This document shows positions 2,440 through 12,423 of a DNA stretch of 12,423 nt, in pieces. The stretch is from Promethearchaeia archaeon (lineage in GTDB: Archaea > Asgardarchaeota > Lokiarchaeia > Sigyniarchaeales > SOKP01). The notes under the pieces were generated by a model that had not been told where the DNA came from, searched no databases, and saw only the letters and a program-made list of their open reading frames with translations. How positions within the stretch are numbered: position 1 is the first letter of the stretch; every line of letters begins with the position of its first letter. The position numbers were made by a program, and so were the translations under genes. Location: the NCBI GenBank assembly GCA_029856105.1, contig JAHQWH010000238.1:1-12423 (forward strand), in the 5' to 3' direction.

Positions 2440-2445
2440 AGGTGA
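2440..2445 (+). promoter_or_regulatory. Shine-Dalgarno-like site (AGGTGA) for kae1
   Basis: AGGTGA ends 5 nt before ATG 2451 and is complementary to the 16S rRNA 3' end. Confidence 0.55.
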
Positions 2446-2450
2446 ACCGG

Positions 2451-3458
2451 ATGAAATTAAAAAAAGTTTTAGGTATTGAATCTACTGCTCACACTTGGAG
2501 TGTGGGTATTATAGGATTTGATGGAACGGTATTTAGTCTTGTTAATGATATTTATATTCCAGAAAAAGGTGGTCTTCATCCAGCTTTAGTAAAAGAGCAA
2601 CATCTTAATAATTTTATGAATATTATAAATCAGGCGTTATTAGAAGCTAGTATTTCAATACATGATATTGATTTAATCGCGTTTAGTAAGAGCCCTGGTT
2701 TAGGGCCCATATTAAAAATTGGTGCCCAAGCTGCTAGAATGTTAACTCAACTGTTAGATATTCCAATAGTAGCTGTTAATCACTGCATTGCTCATATAGA
2801 AATTGGACGGCTAATGTGTAAAATTGAGGACCCTTTAACTTTATATGTATCAGGCGGGAATACGATTGTTAGTGCGTATGAGTCTGGAAGATATCAAATT
2901 TTTGGAGAGACTCTCGATATTCCTATTGGTAATTTATTAGATTCATTTGCCCGCGATGTTGAATTACCCCATCCTGGAGGCCCAAAAATCGAAAAATTAG
3001 CGTTTAACTCAAATAAATATTTGTCTTTGCCTTATGTTGTGAAAGGTATGGATTTATCTTTTTCAGGACTCTATACAGCCGCTAAAAGGTTATTAGAGTC
3101 CAAAGATTATAATAAGAAATATAATTTAAACGATGTTGCTTATTCATTGCAAGAAACTGCTTTTGCTATGCTAACTGAAGTTACCGAAAGGGCTTTAGCT
3201 CACACGGAAAAAAAAGAAGTTTTATTAACTGGTGGTGTTGCTGCTAATAAAAGGTTGCAAGAAATGATTAAATATATAAGTGCAGAACATGGCGCGAGGT
3301 TTGAAGTTGTTCCTTTAAAATACTCGGGAGATAATGGAGCAATGATTGGATGGACTGGCCTTCTAAGGCATGAAGCTGAAGGGGGTCATACAATTTTGGA
3401 AACGAAAATAAACCCTAAAGAACGCATGGATCAAATCACAATTCCTTGGAGAGATTAG
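2451..3458 (+). CDS. kae1: KEOPS complex tRNA N6-adenosine threonylcarbamoyltransferase Kae1
   Basis: LGIESTAHT, PGLGP, VNHCIAHIEIG (metal-binding histidines), LYVSGGNT, GETLDI, GGVAAN and GDNGAMI motifs. ATG 2451 is preferred over GTG 2442 because the GTG lies inside the SD. Confidence 0.97.
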   Translation: MKLKKVLGIESTAHTWSVGIIGFDGTVFSLVNDIYIPEKGGLHPALVKEQHLNNFMNIINQALLEASISIHDIDLIAFSKSPGLGPILKIGAQAARMLTQLLDIPIVAVNHCIAHIEIGRLMCKIEDPLTLYVSGGNTIVSAYESGRYQIFGETLDIPIGNLLDSFARDVELPHPGGPKIEKLAFNSNKYLSLPYVVKGMDLSFSGLYTAAKRLLESKDYNKKYNLNDVAYSLQETAFAMLTEVTERALAHTEKKEVLLTGGVAANKRLQEMIKYISAEHGARFEVVPLKYSGDNGAMIGWTGLLRHEAEGGHTILETKINPKERMDQITIPWRD

Positions 3459-3471
3459 GTGGTTTAAGAGA

Positions 3472-4146
3472 TTGATTGATGAGATTGTCATAGAGAAACT
3501 TTTTCACAAGGGTGCTGAAGCAAGTCTTTTCTACGGTCATTGGTTTGGTAAAGAGGTTATATTTAAACTCCGTAGCCCTAAAAATTATCGTATAGAGCAG
3601 CTCGATAAAAAAATACGCGTTATGCGAACCCTTAACGAGGCTAAAGCTTTAATAAAAGTTAAAAACTATGGTGTAAATGTTCCTCAAGTTTACGAAATTG
3701 ACACTGAGAACTCTACAATCGTAATGAAGTATATCAAAGGAGAAAAATTAAAAGATTTTATGAATTCAATAGAAGAAGATAGAAAACAGCAAATCTTTAA
3801 TGAGATCGGTAAATTTGTCGCTATTTTACACAAAAATGGTCATATTCATGGTGATCTTACAACAAGCAATATCATTATTACTTCAATTCAAGAAATTTTC
3901 ATTATTGATTTTGGACTCCACAATTACTCCGATTCTATTGAAGATAAAAGCGTTGATCTCCATCTTTTTAAAAGAGTTTTACTCTCTTCTCATGGTACTG
4001 ATTATAAAATTTGTTTTGATGCCTTTTTAGATGGTTATAGCACAGAATATTGGAAAGCAAAAGTAAATGAAAGCAATGAAATCATAAGAAACATGACTAC
4101 AATAGAAACAAGAGGGCGCTACATCAGAAAGGAAGATAGAAAATAA
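3472..4146 (+). CDS. bud32: KEOPS complex kinase/ATPase Bud32
   Basis: KGAEA, K.R.PK.YR, IHGDLTTSN, IDFGL, EDKSVDLHL and C-terminal RGRY. Lies 13 bp after kae1. TTG start with AGGTGG upstream. Confidence 0.95.
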   Translation: MIDEIVIEKLFHKGAEASLFYGHWFGKEVIFKLRSPKNYRIEQLDKKIRVMRTLNEAKALIKVKNYGVNVPQVYEIDTENSTIVMKYIKGEKLKDFMNSIEEDRKQQIFNEIGKFVAILHKNGHIHGDLTTSNIIITSIQEIFIIDFGLHNYSDSIEDKSVDLHLFKRVLLSSHGTDYKICFDAFLDGYSTEYWKAKVNESNEIIRNMTTIETRGRYIRKEDRK

Positions 4147-5551: not shown

Positions 5552-5752
5552 ATGATTATTCCCATAAGATGTTTTTCATGCGGACGGCTCGTGGCCAATA
5601 TTTATAAACCTTATTTGGAGCTTATAGAAAAAGGAGAAACCGCTGAAGACGCTTTTAAAGAGTTGGGTATTGAAAGGTTCTGTTGCAAAAGAATGATTGT
5701 TAGCCATGTAGACTTGATAAATGAGCTATTAAAGTTCCCAAGGCTACAATAA
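5552..5752 (+). CDS. rpoN: DNA-directed RNA polymerase subunit N (Rpo10)
   Basis: MIIPIRCFSCG...LGIERFCCKRMIVSHVD, the CxxC...CC zinc signature of Rpo10/RPB10. Confidence 0.97.
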   Translation: MIIPIRCFSCGRLVANIYKPYLELIEKGETAEDAFKELGIERFCCKRMIVSHVDLINELLKFPRLQ

Positions 5753-5813: not shown

Positions 5814-5996
5814 CTACTCTTTCCCATAGACGCTAGTCCATCTTACTTTACGTGGGTTTCTTTTTTGCACTAACATAGCGACTCTACATTTATGTGTACA
5901 GAAATTTAGAATAGTCCCATCTTTCTTAATGTACATATGGCCCCTTCCTATTAAGACATCCCCCTGGCAAAAGGAGCATTTTTTTACTTTAACCAT
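5814..5996 (-). CDS. rpl24e: 50S ribosomal protein L24e (eL24)
   Basis: CSFC...GRGHMYIKKDG...FCTHKC...RNPRKVRWT (TRASH-type eL24). Confidence 0.96.
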   Translation of the reverse strand: MVKVKKCSFCQGDVLIGRGHMYIKKDGTILNFCTHKCRVAMLVQKRNPRKVRWTSVYGKE

Positions 5997-6605: not shown

Positions 6606-7427
6606 TTGCAAATATTTGAGGCGCTTGAATTAAGAGAATTTCCTTATTTCTTGACTGTTGATGTTGAGGGAGGAGAAACAGTTGGAGATATAATTACTGA
6701 TCTTAATAGTCGCAAAGTTTATTTGCTTATAGATCACGATACTAAAAGGATTTGGACTTATAATGGCCCTAATAGCTCTTTAAAGCTTCAAGTTTTCGGA
6801 GGAATTTTAGCGGGAATGTTCCGTAAACAATTAAGATTGTTCTACAGAGTTTATTCGTTAAATTTTTATTCTAAAGATGGTCCTGAATTTAAAGAAGTAA
6901 TGGATAAACCCATTGGAGATGGAAGAGCAAGATCTATCGATAAAAAGGACTTTTCTGATTCAGGAATGCAAAGTACAGAGAGAGAAATGAATATCCGCAA
7001 TCCAAGATTAAGTAAAGCTATGGAAAATATAAATCTCTGTACTAAACCAGAAGACCTTAACAGAATCTTTATAATTGTTGGCGGTATTATTTATTCCGAA
7101 GAAGAGGTTCCAGAAGCTATGCTCATTGAGGAAAAAAGTTCCGTTAACCTTGTAAAAATGGGAAGATTAAATAATGGGTTCACATTATTCGATGATCGAA
7201 ACTATTCAACGCGAATAATTGTTAAGGATAGGGTAATTCAAGGAATTGAGCTCTTTGTCCATAATTACGATGAAATGCCCTCTTTACGCATTAAATCGCC
7301 CATAATTCACGAAGATAAAATAAGTGAAGAAGGAGATATGGAAAAATTAATTACTTCCTTTGAAATTCCTGACTCGTTACCAGATATCGAAGCTACGGAA
7401 GGCGAAAACCAAAACAAAAACACTTGA
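6606..7427 (+). CDS. Putative gelsolin-like domain protein with an uncharacterised beta-rich C-terminal domain
   Basis: N-terminal DLNSRKVYLLIDHDTKRIWTYNGPNSS + long helix + DGPEFKEVM resembles the gelsolin-repeat pattern (LNSxxvFiLD..iyvWxGxxSs..helix..ExxeF). Recognised by eye only. TTG start. Confidence 0.6.
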   Translation: MQIFEALELREFPYFLTVDVEGGETVGDIITDLNSRKVYLLIDHDTKRIWTYNGPNSSLKLQVFGGILAGMFRKQLRLFYRVYSLNFYSKDGPEFKEVMDKPIGDGRARSIDKKDFSDSGMQSTEREMNIRNPRLSKAMENINLCTKPEDLNRIFIIVGGIIYSEEEVPEAMLIEEKSSVNLVKMGRLNNGFTLFDDRNYSTRIIVKDRVIQGIELFVHNYDEMPSLRIKSPIIHEDKISEEGDMEKLITSFEIPDSLPDIEATEGENQNKNT

Positions 7428-8995: not shown

Positions 8996-9319
8996 ATGAC
9001 CGAAAGAAAAACTTATTCCGTTTTAATTATTGACAATTTTCATTTTGATCCTGAACATGATATGGTAATCGAAGGTTTTCCAACTGTTGATTTGGCTATT
9101 GAATATGCACGTTGTATTGTTCGTTCATCAATAGAACATCATCGAAAACCCAAACAGACAAAGGAAAAATTAAAACAACTGTGGCATCTATTCGGAGAAA
9201 GTGCACTAGTTATTGGACACAAATATCGAGGTAGTGACGAACTTGATTTCTTTATCAATAATCCTGTAAAAGATGACAAACTTGATTGTAAGAAAATTAG
9301 AGAAAAGGCAGGATTGTAG
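8996..9319 (+). CDS. Hypothetical protein (107 aa)
   Basis: ATG-started ORF with globular composition (IDNFHF, GFPTVDLAIEYAR, LWHLFGE, ELDFFINNP). No family can be confidently named. Confidence 0.75.
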   Translation: MTERKTYSVLIIDNFHFDPEHDMVIEGFPTVDLAIEYARCIVRSSIEHHRKPKQTKEKLKQLWHLFGESALVIGHKYRGSDELDFFINNPVKDDKLDCKKIREKAGL

Positions 9320-9682: not shown

Positions 9683-11938
9683 TTATTTTATTGGTCGACT
9701 GTTGGCCTGAAAAATAGGCCCGATAAATTGGGAGTATAATATACTGTAGGCTGTCTGATTGGAAACCACGCTTATCATTTCTCCTTCTTTTTCCGTTGCA
9801 GGACCAATGATGACTTCTTCAGCGTCTCTGGTTAGCGCAAAGAATTCGCCAGCTCCACTTAATTGCCGGAATTGGATATTACCTAGCGCAATCATCTTTT
9901 TTATGATATCGCCGTAGGTTGCCATATCAAACCTCGATGTTAGCATGAACCTTACCGCCTTTTTCTGATAAGCGTATTCACTTATAACTTGTAAAATCTC
10001 TGGAAGCACGTAGGGCATTACGATAATAATTGATGATTTTACCCTATAAATAGCATCCTTCATAGCTGCAACTAGAGCCTCTCGTCCTACCACTTGCCAC
10101 GTCGTAATGTCCATTATTTCTGGAATTGAACTTGAAGTGTTGTGTATATCACCAAGCTTTATTTCGTTCTTTTCGGCTAACTCTGTGGCGTCGTCAATGG
10201 AGTTCATAAAGTGGAGCGTGAAATCGGCGATCGCATCTTTAATGTTTTGTGTTGTGTCTCGCGTAGTATTCGATAAACTATTTTGTAAAGTTTTCGCATT
10301 TTCTTCGTATTTAGACTTATGATCAATAAGCATTTCGCTTAAGTTTCTATCTAAGTCTGTTGATTCATCGCCCCATAAGTTAATTTCAGCGGTAATTTTG
10401 TCAGAACTGTCTCTTTTTCCACCAATGAATTTATCGTCAAGGTCTCTAATCCAATCCTCTTTTATTCTTTTAACATCGGTGTCATAAGCAGTATAGTGCC
10501 TTAATGATTCTTCTTTATGTTTATTAATTGCTTCGTCGTATTGTTTATGGTGGGTTTTTAGCGAGTTCTCTAGCGAATCTTTAAGCTTAACATTGGTATC
10601 GGAGCAATCTTTTACGCCACTTTGCAAAGTGTTATCGATCTCTCCCGACATATCACTCGCAAGCGTTTCTAATTGTACATTTATGGTCTCTTGTGCTTTA
10701 TGATCTAAATCGTTGGTTTCACTAACGACATTATCGTTTTCTAAAGTTATAATATCTGTGATGTCCGTTTTCATGCTGTCCGAAGTAATTCGCGTATCTT
10801 TTACATATGTCTCACTTGTGTTTGTAAAATCGTTTTTCATAGGTTCAGTATATTTGAGAATGTTTTGAATCGTAGTTTCATGTCTTGCTTTATACTTTTT
10901 CTTTTTACCCATCCAAAAAAATCCCTTTTTACCCATTTCAGCCGAAAAATCTGTAAACCTATTAGCGTGTTCTAAAAGATTATCAATTAAGGTTAACGTC
11001 ATACTTTTAAATTCATTGGTTTGGTCAGTTAACGTCCTATGTCTTTCGTCGACTGTTGCTCTTAAATTAGTTTGAAGGGTGTCAGTGGTGTTCTTAAGGT
11101 GGTTTAAGTGTTCTTTTAATAGATTTGAAATCCTTTCTTTAAGGTCTACGATTATCTTGTCCATTCTTTCCAAATATTTTTCAAGAATTTGTTCCATTCT
11201 AGGTTTAAGATCGTTTGCGATAGTTTTATGTCGATCTACATGATCATCTAAATCTTTTTTCAGTTCTCTTTCTAAATCTTCTACTCTTTTTGAAAAATCA
11301 GATAATAACTCTGAAATTAATCCTGTTAAACTATCCTTTGTTTTATTTACCGTAGATTCGTTTTCTCTTACTCTAGTATCTGAGATATTTTTAATATCTG
11401 AATTTAGCGTGCCCATTATAGAATGAAGATTTTCTTCCAATGTTTTAGATGTATCCGTAAACCGGTTTCTAGAACTGTTAATTCGGTCTCTTTTGTTGTT
11501 GTTCTTAGTGTCTGAATCTTCAAAAAAAGCTTTTATTTGGTCGTCAACGGCAGTTACTACTTCATTAATGCTTTTATCTTGGATAGCCTGCAAACTTTCA
11601 AATCGATCTGATTGATCTGCTAAAATTGAGTCTTTTATTTTAGCAATTTCGTCCCTAAACATCTTAGACTCTCCGATGTACAATTCAAAGTATGGTTCTA
11701 ATGGAATAAACCTGTCAACAATTCCAGTTACTTTTTTGAGAAAACCCTTTTCAACCAACCAATTAGTAACCTCAATAACGCTTTCATATGTCAATTCAGG
11801 GTGGTTTTCCGTTAAAGTTAAATAAACTTCCGACGAAGTTGCTCTTGGGACTCTAAGATAAACAATATATACATTAATTTGGTCTTCAGAGAAACCATAT
11901 CTCGTGAAAATTTCCTTCGTAAATTCTTTTAAGCTCAT
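9683..11938 (-). CDS. TrmB-like protein: N-terminal wHTH, about 520-aa helical (hendecad coiled-coil) insert, C-terminal degenerate PLD-like domain
   Basis: aa 1-83 YGFSEDQINVYIVYL...ATSSEV...LVEKGFL...RFIPLEP is TrmB-type wHTH-like. aa 612-751 WQVVGREALVAAMKDAIYRVKSSIIIVMP...TRDAEEVIIG is TrmB effector/PLD-like with no intact HKD. The middle is helical with 11-residue periodicity. SD GGAG at 11950-11947. Confidence 0.8.
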   Translation of the reverse strand: MSLKEFTKEIFTRYGFSEDQINVYIVYLRVPRATSSEVYLTLTENHPELTYESVIEVTNWLVEKGFLKKVTGIVDRFIPLEPYFELYIGESKMFRDEIAKIKDSILADQSDRFESLQAIQDKSINEVVTAVDDQIKAFFEDSDTKNNNKRDRINSSRNRFTDTSKTLEENLHSIMGTLNSDIKNISDTRVRENESTVNKTKDSLTGLISELLSDFSKRVEDLERELKKDLDDHVDRHKTIANDLKPRMEQILEKYLERMDKIIVDLKERISNLLKEHLNHLKNTTDTLQTNLRATVDERHRTLTDQTNEFKSMTLTLIDNLLEHANRFTDFSAEMGKKGFFWMGKKKKYKARHETTIQNILKYTEPMKNDFTNTSETYVKDTRITSDSMKTDITDIITLENDNVVSETNDLDHKAQETINVQLETLASDMSGEIDNTLQSGVKDCSDTNVKLKDSLENSLKTHHKQYDEAINKHKEESLRHYTAYDTDVKRIKEDWIRDLDDKFIGGKRDSSDKITAEINLWGDESTDLDRNLSEMLIDHKSKYEENAKTLQNSLSNTTRDTTQNIKDAIADFTLHFMNSIDDATELAEKNEIKLGDIHNTSSSIPEIMDITTWQVVGREALVAAMKDAIYRVKSSIIIVMPYVLPEILQVISEYAYQKKAVRFMLTSRFDMATYGDIIKKMIALGNIQFRQLSGAGEFFALTRDAEEVIIGPATEKEGEMISVVSNQTAYSILYSQFIGPIFQANSRPIK

Positions 11939-12373
11939 AAGCTTTTCTCCATTTCTAAAATTAAAATCTAATAAAATTCATATTAATTAAATTAAATTTA
12001 ATCTGAATTTCTTTTTAATATTATTTAAAATATTTTATATATAATAATATTTTCAAAATGATAATATTAAAACTTAAGGATTAAGAAGCTTCATTTTTTG
12101 AGACTTTAATACAGTATCTAATAATATGTTTAAATATAATCAAAAAGATAAACAAAAATTTTAGAAATCTTTCCGCAAATTGTTTTAAAAAATTTTATAT
12201 AATTAAAAATAAAATAAGGGTTAATCCTAAAAATTGAAACCATACCTAAACTTTAAAATTTGCTTTCAGATTAAAAGTAAATCATATCCTTTTCAATCGG
12301 GTAATTTTATTCCTCAATCCTTTTTATATGCCCTTTTCTTGTTTTAATTAAAACAATTTAGTGAAAAAAAAAA

Positions 12374-12423
12374 ATGAAAAAATTAAGTAAAATTCTCTTA
12401 GGCACAATTTTTCTAATGATCCT
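12374..12423 (+). CDS. 5' start of a probable secreted or membrane protein (truncated by the window edge)
   Basis: ATG 12374 gives MKKLSKILLGTIFLMI..., a basic n-region plus hydrophobic h-region typical of a signal peptide. Open to the end of the window. Confidence 0.5.
   Translation, partial: MKKLSKILLGTIFLMI

Follow-up and report, generated by a model that had tools for sequence, protein, structure and literature searches.

A TrmB-type head on a fold-back hendecad rod in Lokiarchaeia: a candidate fixed-length spacer or tether with a putative membrane-binding tip

This locus raises the question of how a protein with TrmB-like domains at both ends and a very long helical region between them is built, and what it might do. 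The gene, a complete CDS by ORF call (P0001, 751 aa plus stop), occupies positions 9683..11938 of the window (the whole 12,423-nt stretch of DNA analysed), on the minus strand, as do all features described below. It is preceded by an AT-rich non-coding region (11939..12423) with a GGAG at 11947-11950, and no gene lies upstream of it on the same strand within the window. Scanning the window with Rfam and for tRNAs gave no hits. An earlier note on this DNA had proposed a DNA-binding head on a long hairpin stalk, and most of that architecture was upheld, while its functional labels stand on weaker ground.

Both termini proved to be TrmB-related, as the earlier note had supposed, by profile E values and VIA-align Z scores. 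The N-terminal winged helix-turn-helix (wHTH, aa 1-83, 11690..11938) was recovered by profile and structural matches: the family profile A2 matched TrmB 3qph (E 3.2e-9) and TrmBL2 5bpd (E 3.7e-6), and the domain superposed on TrmBL2 5bpi_D with a VIA-align Z of 9.2 (rmsd 2.0 Å, 71 residues), while the window protein alone reached 13.5-18.1 bits for the TrmB wHTH, under the Pfam cut-off of 25.6. The C-terminal domain (aa 612-751, 9686..10105), joined to the rod by a linker (aa 589-611, 10106..10174; AlphaFold2 pLDDT 26-46), was identified with VIA-align and Foldseek as the first subdomain of the TrmB effector domain, which has a PLD-like fold. It aligned over ~120 residues with TrmB 2f5t (Z 8.0), TrmBL2 5box (Z 7.8) and 3qph (Z 7.2), VIA-align also matching Nuc, NucT and Zucchini, and its best Foldseek match was TrmBL2. 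This subdomain was recognised by its fold and, in 6 of 26 family members, by PF11495 (best E 1.6e-6). The window protein's own C-domain had no Pfam match and no PDB sequence match, and a C-domain profile found nothing meaningful among PDB sequences, the best hit (E 0.022) being a designed protein. A search of the protein for an HKD motif was negative. The sugar-binding second effector subdomain is missing, as the chain stops at aa 751 and aligns with residues 106-236 of TrmB only, which places the protein outside TrmB in the strict, sugar-sensing sense.

By profile and fold the protein is homologous to TrmB and TrmBL2. It has a wHTH, a helix and a PLD-like subdomain in common with TrmBL2 (TK0471/PF0496; 5bpd, 5box, 5bpi, 5bqt) and TrmB (3qph, 2f5t) of Thermococcales, and TrmBL2 is likewise without the sugar-binding second subdomain. 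In TrmB the domains are joined through a short dimerisation helix, alpha5 (PMC4158304), whereas here that single helix gives way to two long ones of ~245 aa each, which form a hairpin. The head also departs from the family in its recognition helix, which is not of the basic, DNA-contacting kind with Tyr50/Asp51. The helix (aa ~51-63) is acidic, with a net charge of −3 where TrmB has +2 and TrmBL2 +1 (family range, −4 to +1), and the alignment puts Ile55 and Ser53 in place of Tyr50 and Arg48 of TrmB. The wing (aa 64-78) is basic in the whole family, with charges of +1 to +4, and R29 and R32 of the wHTH are invariant. With Ile55 in the place of Tyr50, a residue important for DNA binding by TrmB (PMC4158304), and with an acidic recognition helix, the protein looks to have lost canonical DNA reading, as far as sequence can tell; the head may still be able to bind DNA through the wing, given that the wing stays basic and R29/R32 are invariant. 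The DNA-binding head originally suggested therefore survives as a TrmB-type wHTH, but with doubtful DNA reading.

The region between the two domains is almost free of proline, as had been noticed, with only P246 and P366 in aa 84-603. AlphaFold2 predicted one helix at aa 92-337 and another at aa 346-588, separated by a break over residues 338-345. Arm 1 (10928..11665) is one uninterrupted helix of ~22 hendecads by AlphaFold2 and periodicity, and arm 2 (10175..10903) is the return helix, also of ~22 hendecads, by AlphaFold2, periodicity and covariation. The mid-chain break and the two equal arms anticipated in the note were thus found, but with these helix limits the arms measure 246 and 243 aa instead of ~255; at 0.15 nm per residue the rod is ~37 nm long, which agrees in scale, though not in exact arm length, with the ~38 nm first put forward.

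The periodicity of both arms is that of hendecads rather than heptads, in agreement with the original reading. Fourier power was maximal at 3.66 residues (342 in arm 1 and 221 in arm 2, compared with 42±13 and 34±10, and maxima of 109 and 77, in 500 shuffles) and at background level at 3.5 residues. With the arms set in rows of 11, the hydrophobic core consists of hendecad positions a, d, e and h, and the columns singled out earlier (L204 and F215 through L303, I208 through L274, and L211 through L288) occupy positions a, e and h. The hydrophobic phase is nearly constant within each arm and is lost only at aa ~340-355. The hydrophobic stripe formed by the core is narrow and weak: large hydrophobic residues make up 36-74% of core positions. 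It is flanked by positions carrying basic residues, with acidic ones on the far face. The same 3.66-residue period was found in forms of 830, 962 and 1052 aa. The rod has net charges of −10 and −17 (whole protein, −29), and is conserved at 2.4-2.5 bits, close to the level of the globular domains, with a conserved patch mirrored between the arms (aa 226-258 and 425-457). Matches to the ZorA tail, SpiroCoCo, Baculo_PEP_C and Exonuc_VII_L, and the apparent kinship with ApoA-I and other apolipoproteins, were below threshold and were read as coiled-coil or periodicity noise.

That the two arms pair antiparallel and in register, with i+j about 682, and so join the head domains at one end of a straight rod, is strongly supported. 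Arm lengths were surveyed in 237 homologues, and in the Loki clade arm 2 minus arm 1 was 12 in every length class: (249,261), (289,301), (293,305), (300,312), (311,323), (322,334), (333,345), (344,356), (355,367) and (399,411). Eight of these classes obey 289+11n. Lengths are fixed inside genera, and changes between genera are equal in both arms and mostly in 11-residue units, so that the expectation of matched indels in the two arms was borne out exactly across the survey, and that of 11n steps for the most part. The indels are concentrated in a hot spot of arm 1 (aa ~154-200, 11339..11479), where longer relatives have 40-150 additional residues, and in its mirror in arm 2 (aa ~482-535, 10334..10495), where insertions of equal size occur. 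Individual events are mirrored as well: an insertion of 40 at aa 163 goes with one of 40 at aa 509, a deletion of 11 at aa 292 with one of 11 at aa 383, and 4+7 residues were inserted per arm. Antidiagonal averages of APC-corrected mutual information had their maximum at i+j = 681-686, and with indel-free sequences only the peaks were at i+j = 682/686/690/678/675, which centres the fold-back at aa ~341. Conservation profiles are likewise correlated between arm 1 and mirrored arm 2 (r = 0.69). The steps by which the two arms change match exactly and mostly measure 11 residues, which shows that rod length is tightly selected. This exact co-variation of the arms amounts to a rare natural experiment, and it also yields the register, i+j≈682.

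The middle region was modelled as an antiparallel hairpin, neither a compact bundle nor a parallel coil: AlphaFold2 of aa 205-478 (81 sequences) gave this form with a pLDDT of 90.6. The apex model was closest in structure to the chemoreceptor hairpin 2ch7 (Z 11.6, 268 aligned), followed by SMC and Rad50 arms, with which the full-length model aligned likewise. Values of Z up to 11.6 are in the range usual for long helices, and for this reason these geometric matches were taken solely as a sign that the model is a hairpin; Foldseek with the apex model gave no match at E <= 0.001. Equal arms and covariation would fit an extended antiparallel homodimer, with arm 1 lying on arm 2 of the other chain, just as well, and only two observations favour a hairpin over it: the break is rich in Gly, and AlphaFold2 models the monomer as a hairpin. 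No published description of a TrmB head on a fold-back rod was found in the literature, and on the basis of this search the hairpin rod is a previously undescribed architecture within the TrmB family.

At the apex, the helix break falls within GKKGFFWMGKKKKYK (aa 336-350, 10889..10933), a motif that is invariant in A1 and has no counterpart in TrmB or TrmBL2. The apex loop comprises 9-15 residues, and the sole Cys of the protein is at position 445. Residues 335-352 carry a net charge of +8, four aromatic residues and two or three Gly. Variants of the tip always combine Gly with aromatic or hydrophobic and basic residues, while the tips of distant Asgard clades are far less basic. Apart from the tip, the protein has no strongly cationic, aromatic patch, the wHTH having a net charge of −3 and the rod being acidic.

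Given an acidic rod and head and an aromatic tip of charge +8, our best guess is a membrane-anchored spacer or tether, and we give about an even chance to the reading of the protein as a TrmB-derived head on a fold-back hendecad rod that, with its tip inserted in the membrane, sets a fixed length. This function was read from charge and motif, and nucleic acid or protein would be equally plausible ligands of a Lys-rich aromatic loop. Evolutionarily, the linker helix of TrmB and TrmBL2 has been replaced by two ~245-residue hendecad (11/3) helices. The tip would act like DivIVA and enter the anionic cytoplasmic membrane peripherally; in DivIVA, as summarised in PMC3924036 (Oliva et al. 2010), loops with aromatic and Lys/Arg residues cap a coiled coil and insert into the bilayer. 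The putative membrane-binding tip repeats this pattern of exposed aromatics beside Lys/Arg, although the DivIVA cap belongs to a parallel dimer and is non-homologous, whereas here the pattern sits at a hairpin apex. Projecting from the membrane, the rod would act as a spacer that holds the head at a distance of ~37 nm, rising to as much as ~60 nm in genera with long arms. The head itself probably no longer reads DNA by a canonical recognition helix, and may hold DNA non-specifically by its basic wing, or else a protein partner. TrmB and the chemoreceptor hairpins make it likely, by analogy, that the protein dimerises into a four-helix rod.

The narrower reading of a strict DNA-membrane tether, already offered in the earlier note, in which the head would bind DNA non-specifically like TrmBL2 and the tip would bind membrane, keeping chromatin at a fixed distance from the envelope, appears unlikely. 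The RacA-DivIVA pair of Bacillus is a functional analogue of such a tether. The strict tether is favoured by the nearest solved relative being the chromatin protein TrmBL2, by the family-wide basic wing with invariant R29/R32, by the cationic, aromatic tip and by the conserved rod length, but the acidic recognition helix, the loss of Tyr50 and Arg48, and the net charges of the wHTH and of the whole protein all speak against it.

Going further, the spacer or tether could be an Asgard molecular ruler tuned by genus, its membrane-inserted tip and rigid hendecad rod holding a TrmB-derived, chromatin- or protein-binding head 37-60 nm off the membrane; in this full form the proposal is speculative and, we think, unlikely. 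The ruler, if real, would give the nucleoid or a cytoplasmic assembly its organisation with respect to the envelope, and the lineage nearest to eukaryotes would have a prokaryotic equivalent of membrane-chromatin tethers. Binding of membrane by the tip together with binding of chromatin or a partner by the head would represent a new mode of organising the Asgard cell interior. The co-variation of the two arms predicts that species with forms of 751, 831, 874, 962 or 1051 aa should show structures whose lengths differ in proportion in cryo-ET. Apart from its cellular role, a long, regular antiparallel hendecad coiled coil might be of use to protein engineers.

Chemoreceptor hairpins, the best structural matches, suggest a signalling device, in which binding of a partner or of membrane at the tip would cause a change along a dimeric four-helix rod that switches the TrmB head. 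The cytoplasmic signalling domain of methyl-accepting chemotaxis proteins (MCPs; e.g., 2ch7, 3zx6) is also a long antiparallel hairpin with a conserved tip, and the MCP family, in which symmetric periodic indels of the two arms give rise to length classes, is the only well-known precedent (PMC5907407) for the pattern seen here, where such indels also define length classes, with 11- rather than 7-residue units. A rod conserved almost like a globular domain, with its mirrored patch, fits signalling too. The likeness is structural only, however: MCPsignal was absent from the Pfam matches at E <= 1, leaving no sequence kinship with MCP signalling domains, and in contrast to MCPs the protein has hendecads instead of heptads, a TrmB-module head, no transmembrane part and no Che partners. 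With no evident methylation or kinase partners, no conserved operon, and a head that looks a poor DNA reader, a signalling role is quite unlikely.

SMC, Rad50 and MukB proteins also have equal antiparallel intramolecular arms, with N- and C-terminal parts in one head and a functional apex, and the fold-back of equal arms at an apex in the window protein corresponds to this plan, although its hendecads are regular and without the usual SMC interruptions. An ATPase-free bridge of this type, made of tip-to-tip or extended antiparallel dimers with heads ~75 nm apart, would cross-link DNA or protein; self-association could be driven by the exposed FFW cluster, and arm matching and covariation are blind to whether pairing is within or between chains. 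It is nonetheless very unlikely. ATPase motifs, none of which had been visible to the earlier note, are indeed absent, with no Walker A motif ([AG]xxxxGK[ST]) in the protein and no SMC or Rad50 match in Pfam or NCBIfam, and the apex has neither an SMC hinge nor a Rad50 CxxC zinc hook. Because the ATPase motifs are absent, the likeness is limited to geometry, and of the SMC-like rod once considered only this geometry is left. Tips of +8 would moreover repel one another, and the conserved Gly and the AlphaFold2 models favour a turn.

An apolipoprotein- or perilipin-like lipid binder, whose 11/3 helices would open flat on lipid with the hairpin as a lipid-free storage form, is highly improbable: the 11-residue amphipathic period, with its basic flanks and acidic far face, and weak sequence matches (PF01442, E 3.2e-7; ApoA-I chains, E ~3e-6) recall the 11/22-mers of apolipoproteins A-I, A-IV and E, which we read as shared periodicity, but the PF01442 score of 30.7 bits is far under the cut-off of 90, two prolines in 520 residues leave no Pro-punctuated 22-mers, the hydrophobic face is narrow and weak, the protein is archaeal and cytoplasmic, and the exactly matched arms and their i+j covariation argue for packing between helices.

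Whatever the role of the proposed spacer or tether, its gene is near-universal, single-copy and expressed in Lokiarchaeia. It was present as a single copy in 62 of 68 genomes of its own family and, in the sister family, in 6 of 7; more than 160 orthologues are exactly 751 aa long, and there were no indels among 31 orthologues of 72-95% identity. The gene is covered by metatranscriptome contigs, of a kind that can contain DNA even in RNA libraries; one of 2270 nt matches the extent of the gene, and an RNA contig reaches to 11983 in the upstream region. The gene flanks were without RNA-contig cover, from which nothing was inferred. Neighbouring genes in the window differ from those at the locus of a 73%-identical orthologue, and no conserved operon partner came to light. 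Two paralogues occur in the same genome, in which the 11/3 periodicity is confined to part of the helical region, and a paralogue at L002 scores 40.4 bits against the TrmB wHTH Pfam.

The 751-aa protein encoded at 9683-11938 (-), here called the rod protein, is strongly supported as a fold-back rod bearing a TrmB-type head, the head being formed by the two terminal domains, a winged helix-turn-helix (wHTH) and a PLD-like C-terminal domain. No description of a TrmB-headed fold-back rod was found in the literature searched; the architecture is a new one among TrmB proteins, and it is genuinely interesting both to Asgard cell biology and to the study of coiled coils. The elements that the earlier note had read from the sequence were each found again on re-checking. 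The middle region (aa 84-603) is indeed nearly proline-free, broken only by P246 and P366, and the hydrophobic residues listed as evidence of hendecads occupy positions a, e and h in rows of 11, with positions d and i partly hydrophobic. Averaged over 31 orthologues, hydrophobicity gave a Fourier peak at 3.66 residues in both arms (power 342 and 221, against 42±13 and 34±10, maxima 109 and 77, in 500 column shuffles), while power at the heptad period of 3.5 was at background. The hydrophobic phase was nearly constant across about 245 residues per arm, so that the arms are without stutters, and it collapsed only at aa ~340-355.

AlphaFold2 modelling of the full chain (pLDDT 60) gave a wHTH followed by helices at 92-337 and 346-588, interrupted at 338-345, and then by an alpha/beta domain at 616-745. 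The two near-equal arms and central break proposed earlier thus stand, with arms of 246 and 243 residues rather than about 255, and a rod of ~37 nm (at 0.15 nm per residue) rather than ~38 nm. A model of aa 205-478, built from an 81-sequence alignment, was more confident (pLDDT 90.6) and comprised two helices broken at aa 338-339; the middle region was modelled as a hairpin, as had been suggested, and not as a compact bundle or parallel coil. Its best whole-length structural matches were the chemoreceptor hairpin 2ch7 (Z 11.6, 268/274 aligned) and SMC or Rad50 arms, although long helices commonly score this high, so that these values serve only to show that the model is a hairpin.

A profile search against 1.8 billion representatives, supplemented by another search for homologues, yielded a family of numerous length classes spanning 751-1052 aa; every named member was Asgard (Loki/Promethearchaeota, Hod-, Heimdall- and Jordarchaeales), and long forms retained the 3.66-3.67 period. 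When 237 sequences were aligned to an HMM of the 751-aa form (arm 1, P82 to F331; arm 2, R352 to T613), the Loki-clade classes had arms of 249/261 (163 sequences), 289/301 (20 sequences), 293/305, 300/312, 311/323 (13 sequences), 322/334, 333/345, 344/356, 355/367 (7 sequences) and 399/411 aa. Arm 2 exceeded arm 1 by 12 residues in every one of these, despite growth of up to 150 residues per arm, and eight classes fit the series 289+11n. The earlier proposal that arm lengths should be correlated was therefore borne out throughout the Loki clade, mostly in 11-residue steps, and roughly equal arms were kept in more distant clades (258/271, 283/283, 296/308, 261/256). Much longer distant relatives (P0158, P0162, P0169, P0189, P0220 and P0259; 1100-1788 aa) also occur, likewise in genomes of other Asgard families; they match the rod profile several times per chain, end in the same C-domain, and may carry multiple or much longer hairpins.

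Length changes were mirrored about the centre of the rod: 40 residues were inserted after both 163 and 509, 11 were deleted at both 292 and 383, and insertions of 4+7 residues lay at 176/183 in arm 1 and 491/498 in arm 2, which places the paired sites at a sum of residue positions (i+j) of about 670-685. Matched 7s or 4s in both arms were occasionally used besides 11-residue units, so that 40 can be read as 3×11+7. Chemoreceptor hairpins likewise form length classes through symmetric indels in both arms, but in seven-residue units (PMC5907407, citing Alexander and Zhulin), unlike the 11-residue units seen here. Covariation, which does not depend on indels, was measured as APC-corrected mutual information and averaged over antidiagonals of constant i+j; it peaked at i+j = 681-686 for all sequences and at 682, 686, 690, 678 and 675 for the 163 indel-free ones, where nine of the top 10 of 246 antidiagonals lay within 675-690, so the turn falls at aa ~341. 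Conservation computed in windows correlated between arm 1 and mirrored arm 2 (r = 0.69). A mirrored, highly conserved mid-rod patch (aa 226-258 and 425-457, within 10580-11263) contains surface positions as well as the invariant K245-P246 and the sole Cys, C445, and may mark a kink or a site where a partner binds; the second invariant proline, P366, is not a mirror of P246.

Given the matched arm lengths, mirrored indels, covariation, mirrored conservation and AlphaFold2 model, it is close to certain that the arms pair antiparallel and in register. Such pairing could also arise between two chains, as an extended antiparallel dimer, but the conserved Gly-rich break and the predicted models speak for the hairpin, which is considerably the more probable, the dimer being a minor alternative. 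An apolipoprotein-type lipid belt is improbable, as matches were far under threshold, proline punctuation was lacking and the helices covary with each other.

The TrmB relationship of the termini was confirmed by profile and structure. Alone, the rod protein scored 13.5-18.1 bits against Pfam TrmB, below the cut-off of 25.6, while a profile of the family N-termini matched TrmB 3qph (E 3.2e-9) and TrmBL2 5bpd (E 3.7e-6), and the modelled wHTH superposed on TrmBL2 (Z 9.2, rmsd 2.0 A). The modelled C-domain superposed on the first effector subdomain of TrmB (2f5t, Z 8.0; 3qph, Z 7.2) and TrmBL2 (5box, Z 7.8), as well as on PLD-fold nucleases (Nuc, NucT, Zucchini), and 6 of 26 family members matched PF11495. 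The motif check found no HKD motif, and in the structural alignment to TrmB the second, sugar-binding subdomain had no counterpart; the head thus resembles that of TrmBL2.

A DNA tether or SMC-like machine had been proposed, a functional reading that is only partly borne out. Motif checks and domain-family searches found no ATPase motifs, as the earlier note had also observed, and no hook or hinge, so the SMC likeness is one of geometry only. TrmB Tyr50, important for DNA binding (PMC4158304), aligns with Ile55 and Arg48 with Ser53, and the recognition helix has a charge of -3 (-4 to +1 across the family), versus +2 in TrmB and +1 in TrmBL2; judged from these residues and charges, canonical DNA reading is unlikely. 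The head may touch DNA non-specifically or bind a protein ligand, since its wing is basic across the family (+1 to +4) and R29/R32 do not vary. The chain is acidic (net -29; arm 1 -10, arm 2 -17, wHTH -3), and the apex (aa 335-352) has a net charge of +8, four aromatic residues and two or three Gly. Its motif, GKKGFFWMGKKKKYK, is invariant throughout the 751-aa class and becomes KQGLFFTKGKKRKF or KRGSAWKALFLGKHK in other length classes; distant clades keep Gly or Pro and aromatic residues, with fewer basic ones. DivIVA binds membrane via similar exposed aromatic and basic loops capping a coiled coil (PMC3924036), and by this analogy the best reading is that the tip would anchor the protein peripherally to the membrane, and that the rod, acidic and self-repelling, would present the head at a set distance.

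Among 301 genomes drawn from the phylum, a single copy of the gene was found in 62 of 68 from the same family and in 6 of 7 from the sister family, one of the genomes with the gene being a complete, single-contig 4.4-Mb sequence. Each genus keeps to one length (751 aa in the two largest; ~831, ~857, ~937 and ~1051 in others), and no indel was seen among 31 orthologues at 72-95% identity. A single 2270-nt RNA-Seq metatranscriptome contig (96% identity, word depth 250) spans 9714-11983, that is, the gene and 45 nt upstream with nothing beyond, and parts of the gene also turned up in another run from that study and in one run from a hydrothermal-vent study. This fits a monocistronic, well-expressed mRNA, although DNA can be present in RNA libraries. 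The gene seems to be a solitary one, with ~485 bp of AT-rich non-coding DNA on its 5' side, GGAG 8 nt ahead of the ATG, and neighbours unlike those around an orthologue of 73% identity.

The window is otherwise a housekeeping stretch (Rpb7/RpoE, S24e, Kae1, Bud32, S28e, L7Ae, RpoN, L24e, S6e, Fae-Hps) of a 3.66-Mb Asgard MAG (Lokiarchaeia/Promethearchaeota; completeness 92%). Kae1 (TsaD family) and a Bud32-like kinase, the usual archaeal KEOPS pair, lie side by side at 2442-4146 (+), surrounded by genes for ribosomal proteins and RNA polymerase subunits, including RpoN (5552-5752) and L24e (5814-5996). Fae-Hps is flanked by ORFs at 6606-7427 (+), 273 aa, and 8996-9319 (+), 107 aa, neither with a Pfam match, the latter convergent with the rod gene.

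Two paralogues lie on other contigs of the same genome, L002:850-2841 (+), 663 aa, and L003:982-3237 (-), 751 aa, the latter with a Cys-rich N-terminal extension. In both, a TrmB wHTH is accompanied by a helical stretch of ~270 aa, hendecad in part only, by the PLD-like domain seen in the rod protein, and by a Pro-rich linker; each also has a conserved C-terminal module whose last residues read FWRKKVNI or FWRQKLNI. No stand-alone PLD-like domain was found in this genome; one occurs in G210, a genome of the same family (217-aa open frame), and the profile search returned others of 188-192 aa (P0143, P0149, P0154, P0160) and 143-147 aa (P0146, P0165, P0166), several with a basic MFRKKK-type N-terminus. 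Such proteins could either partner the head of the rod protein or compete with it.
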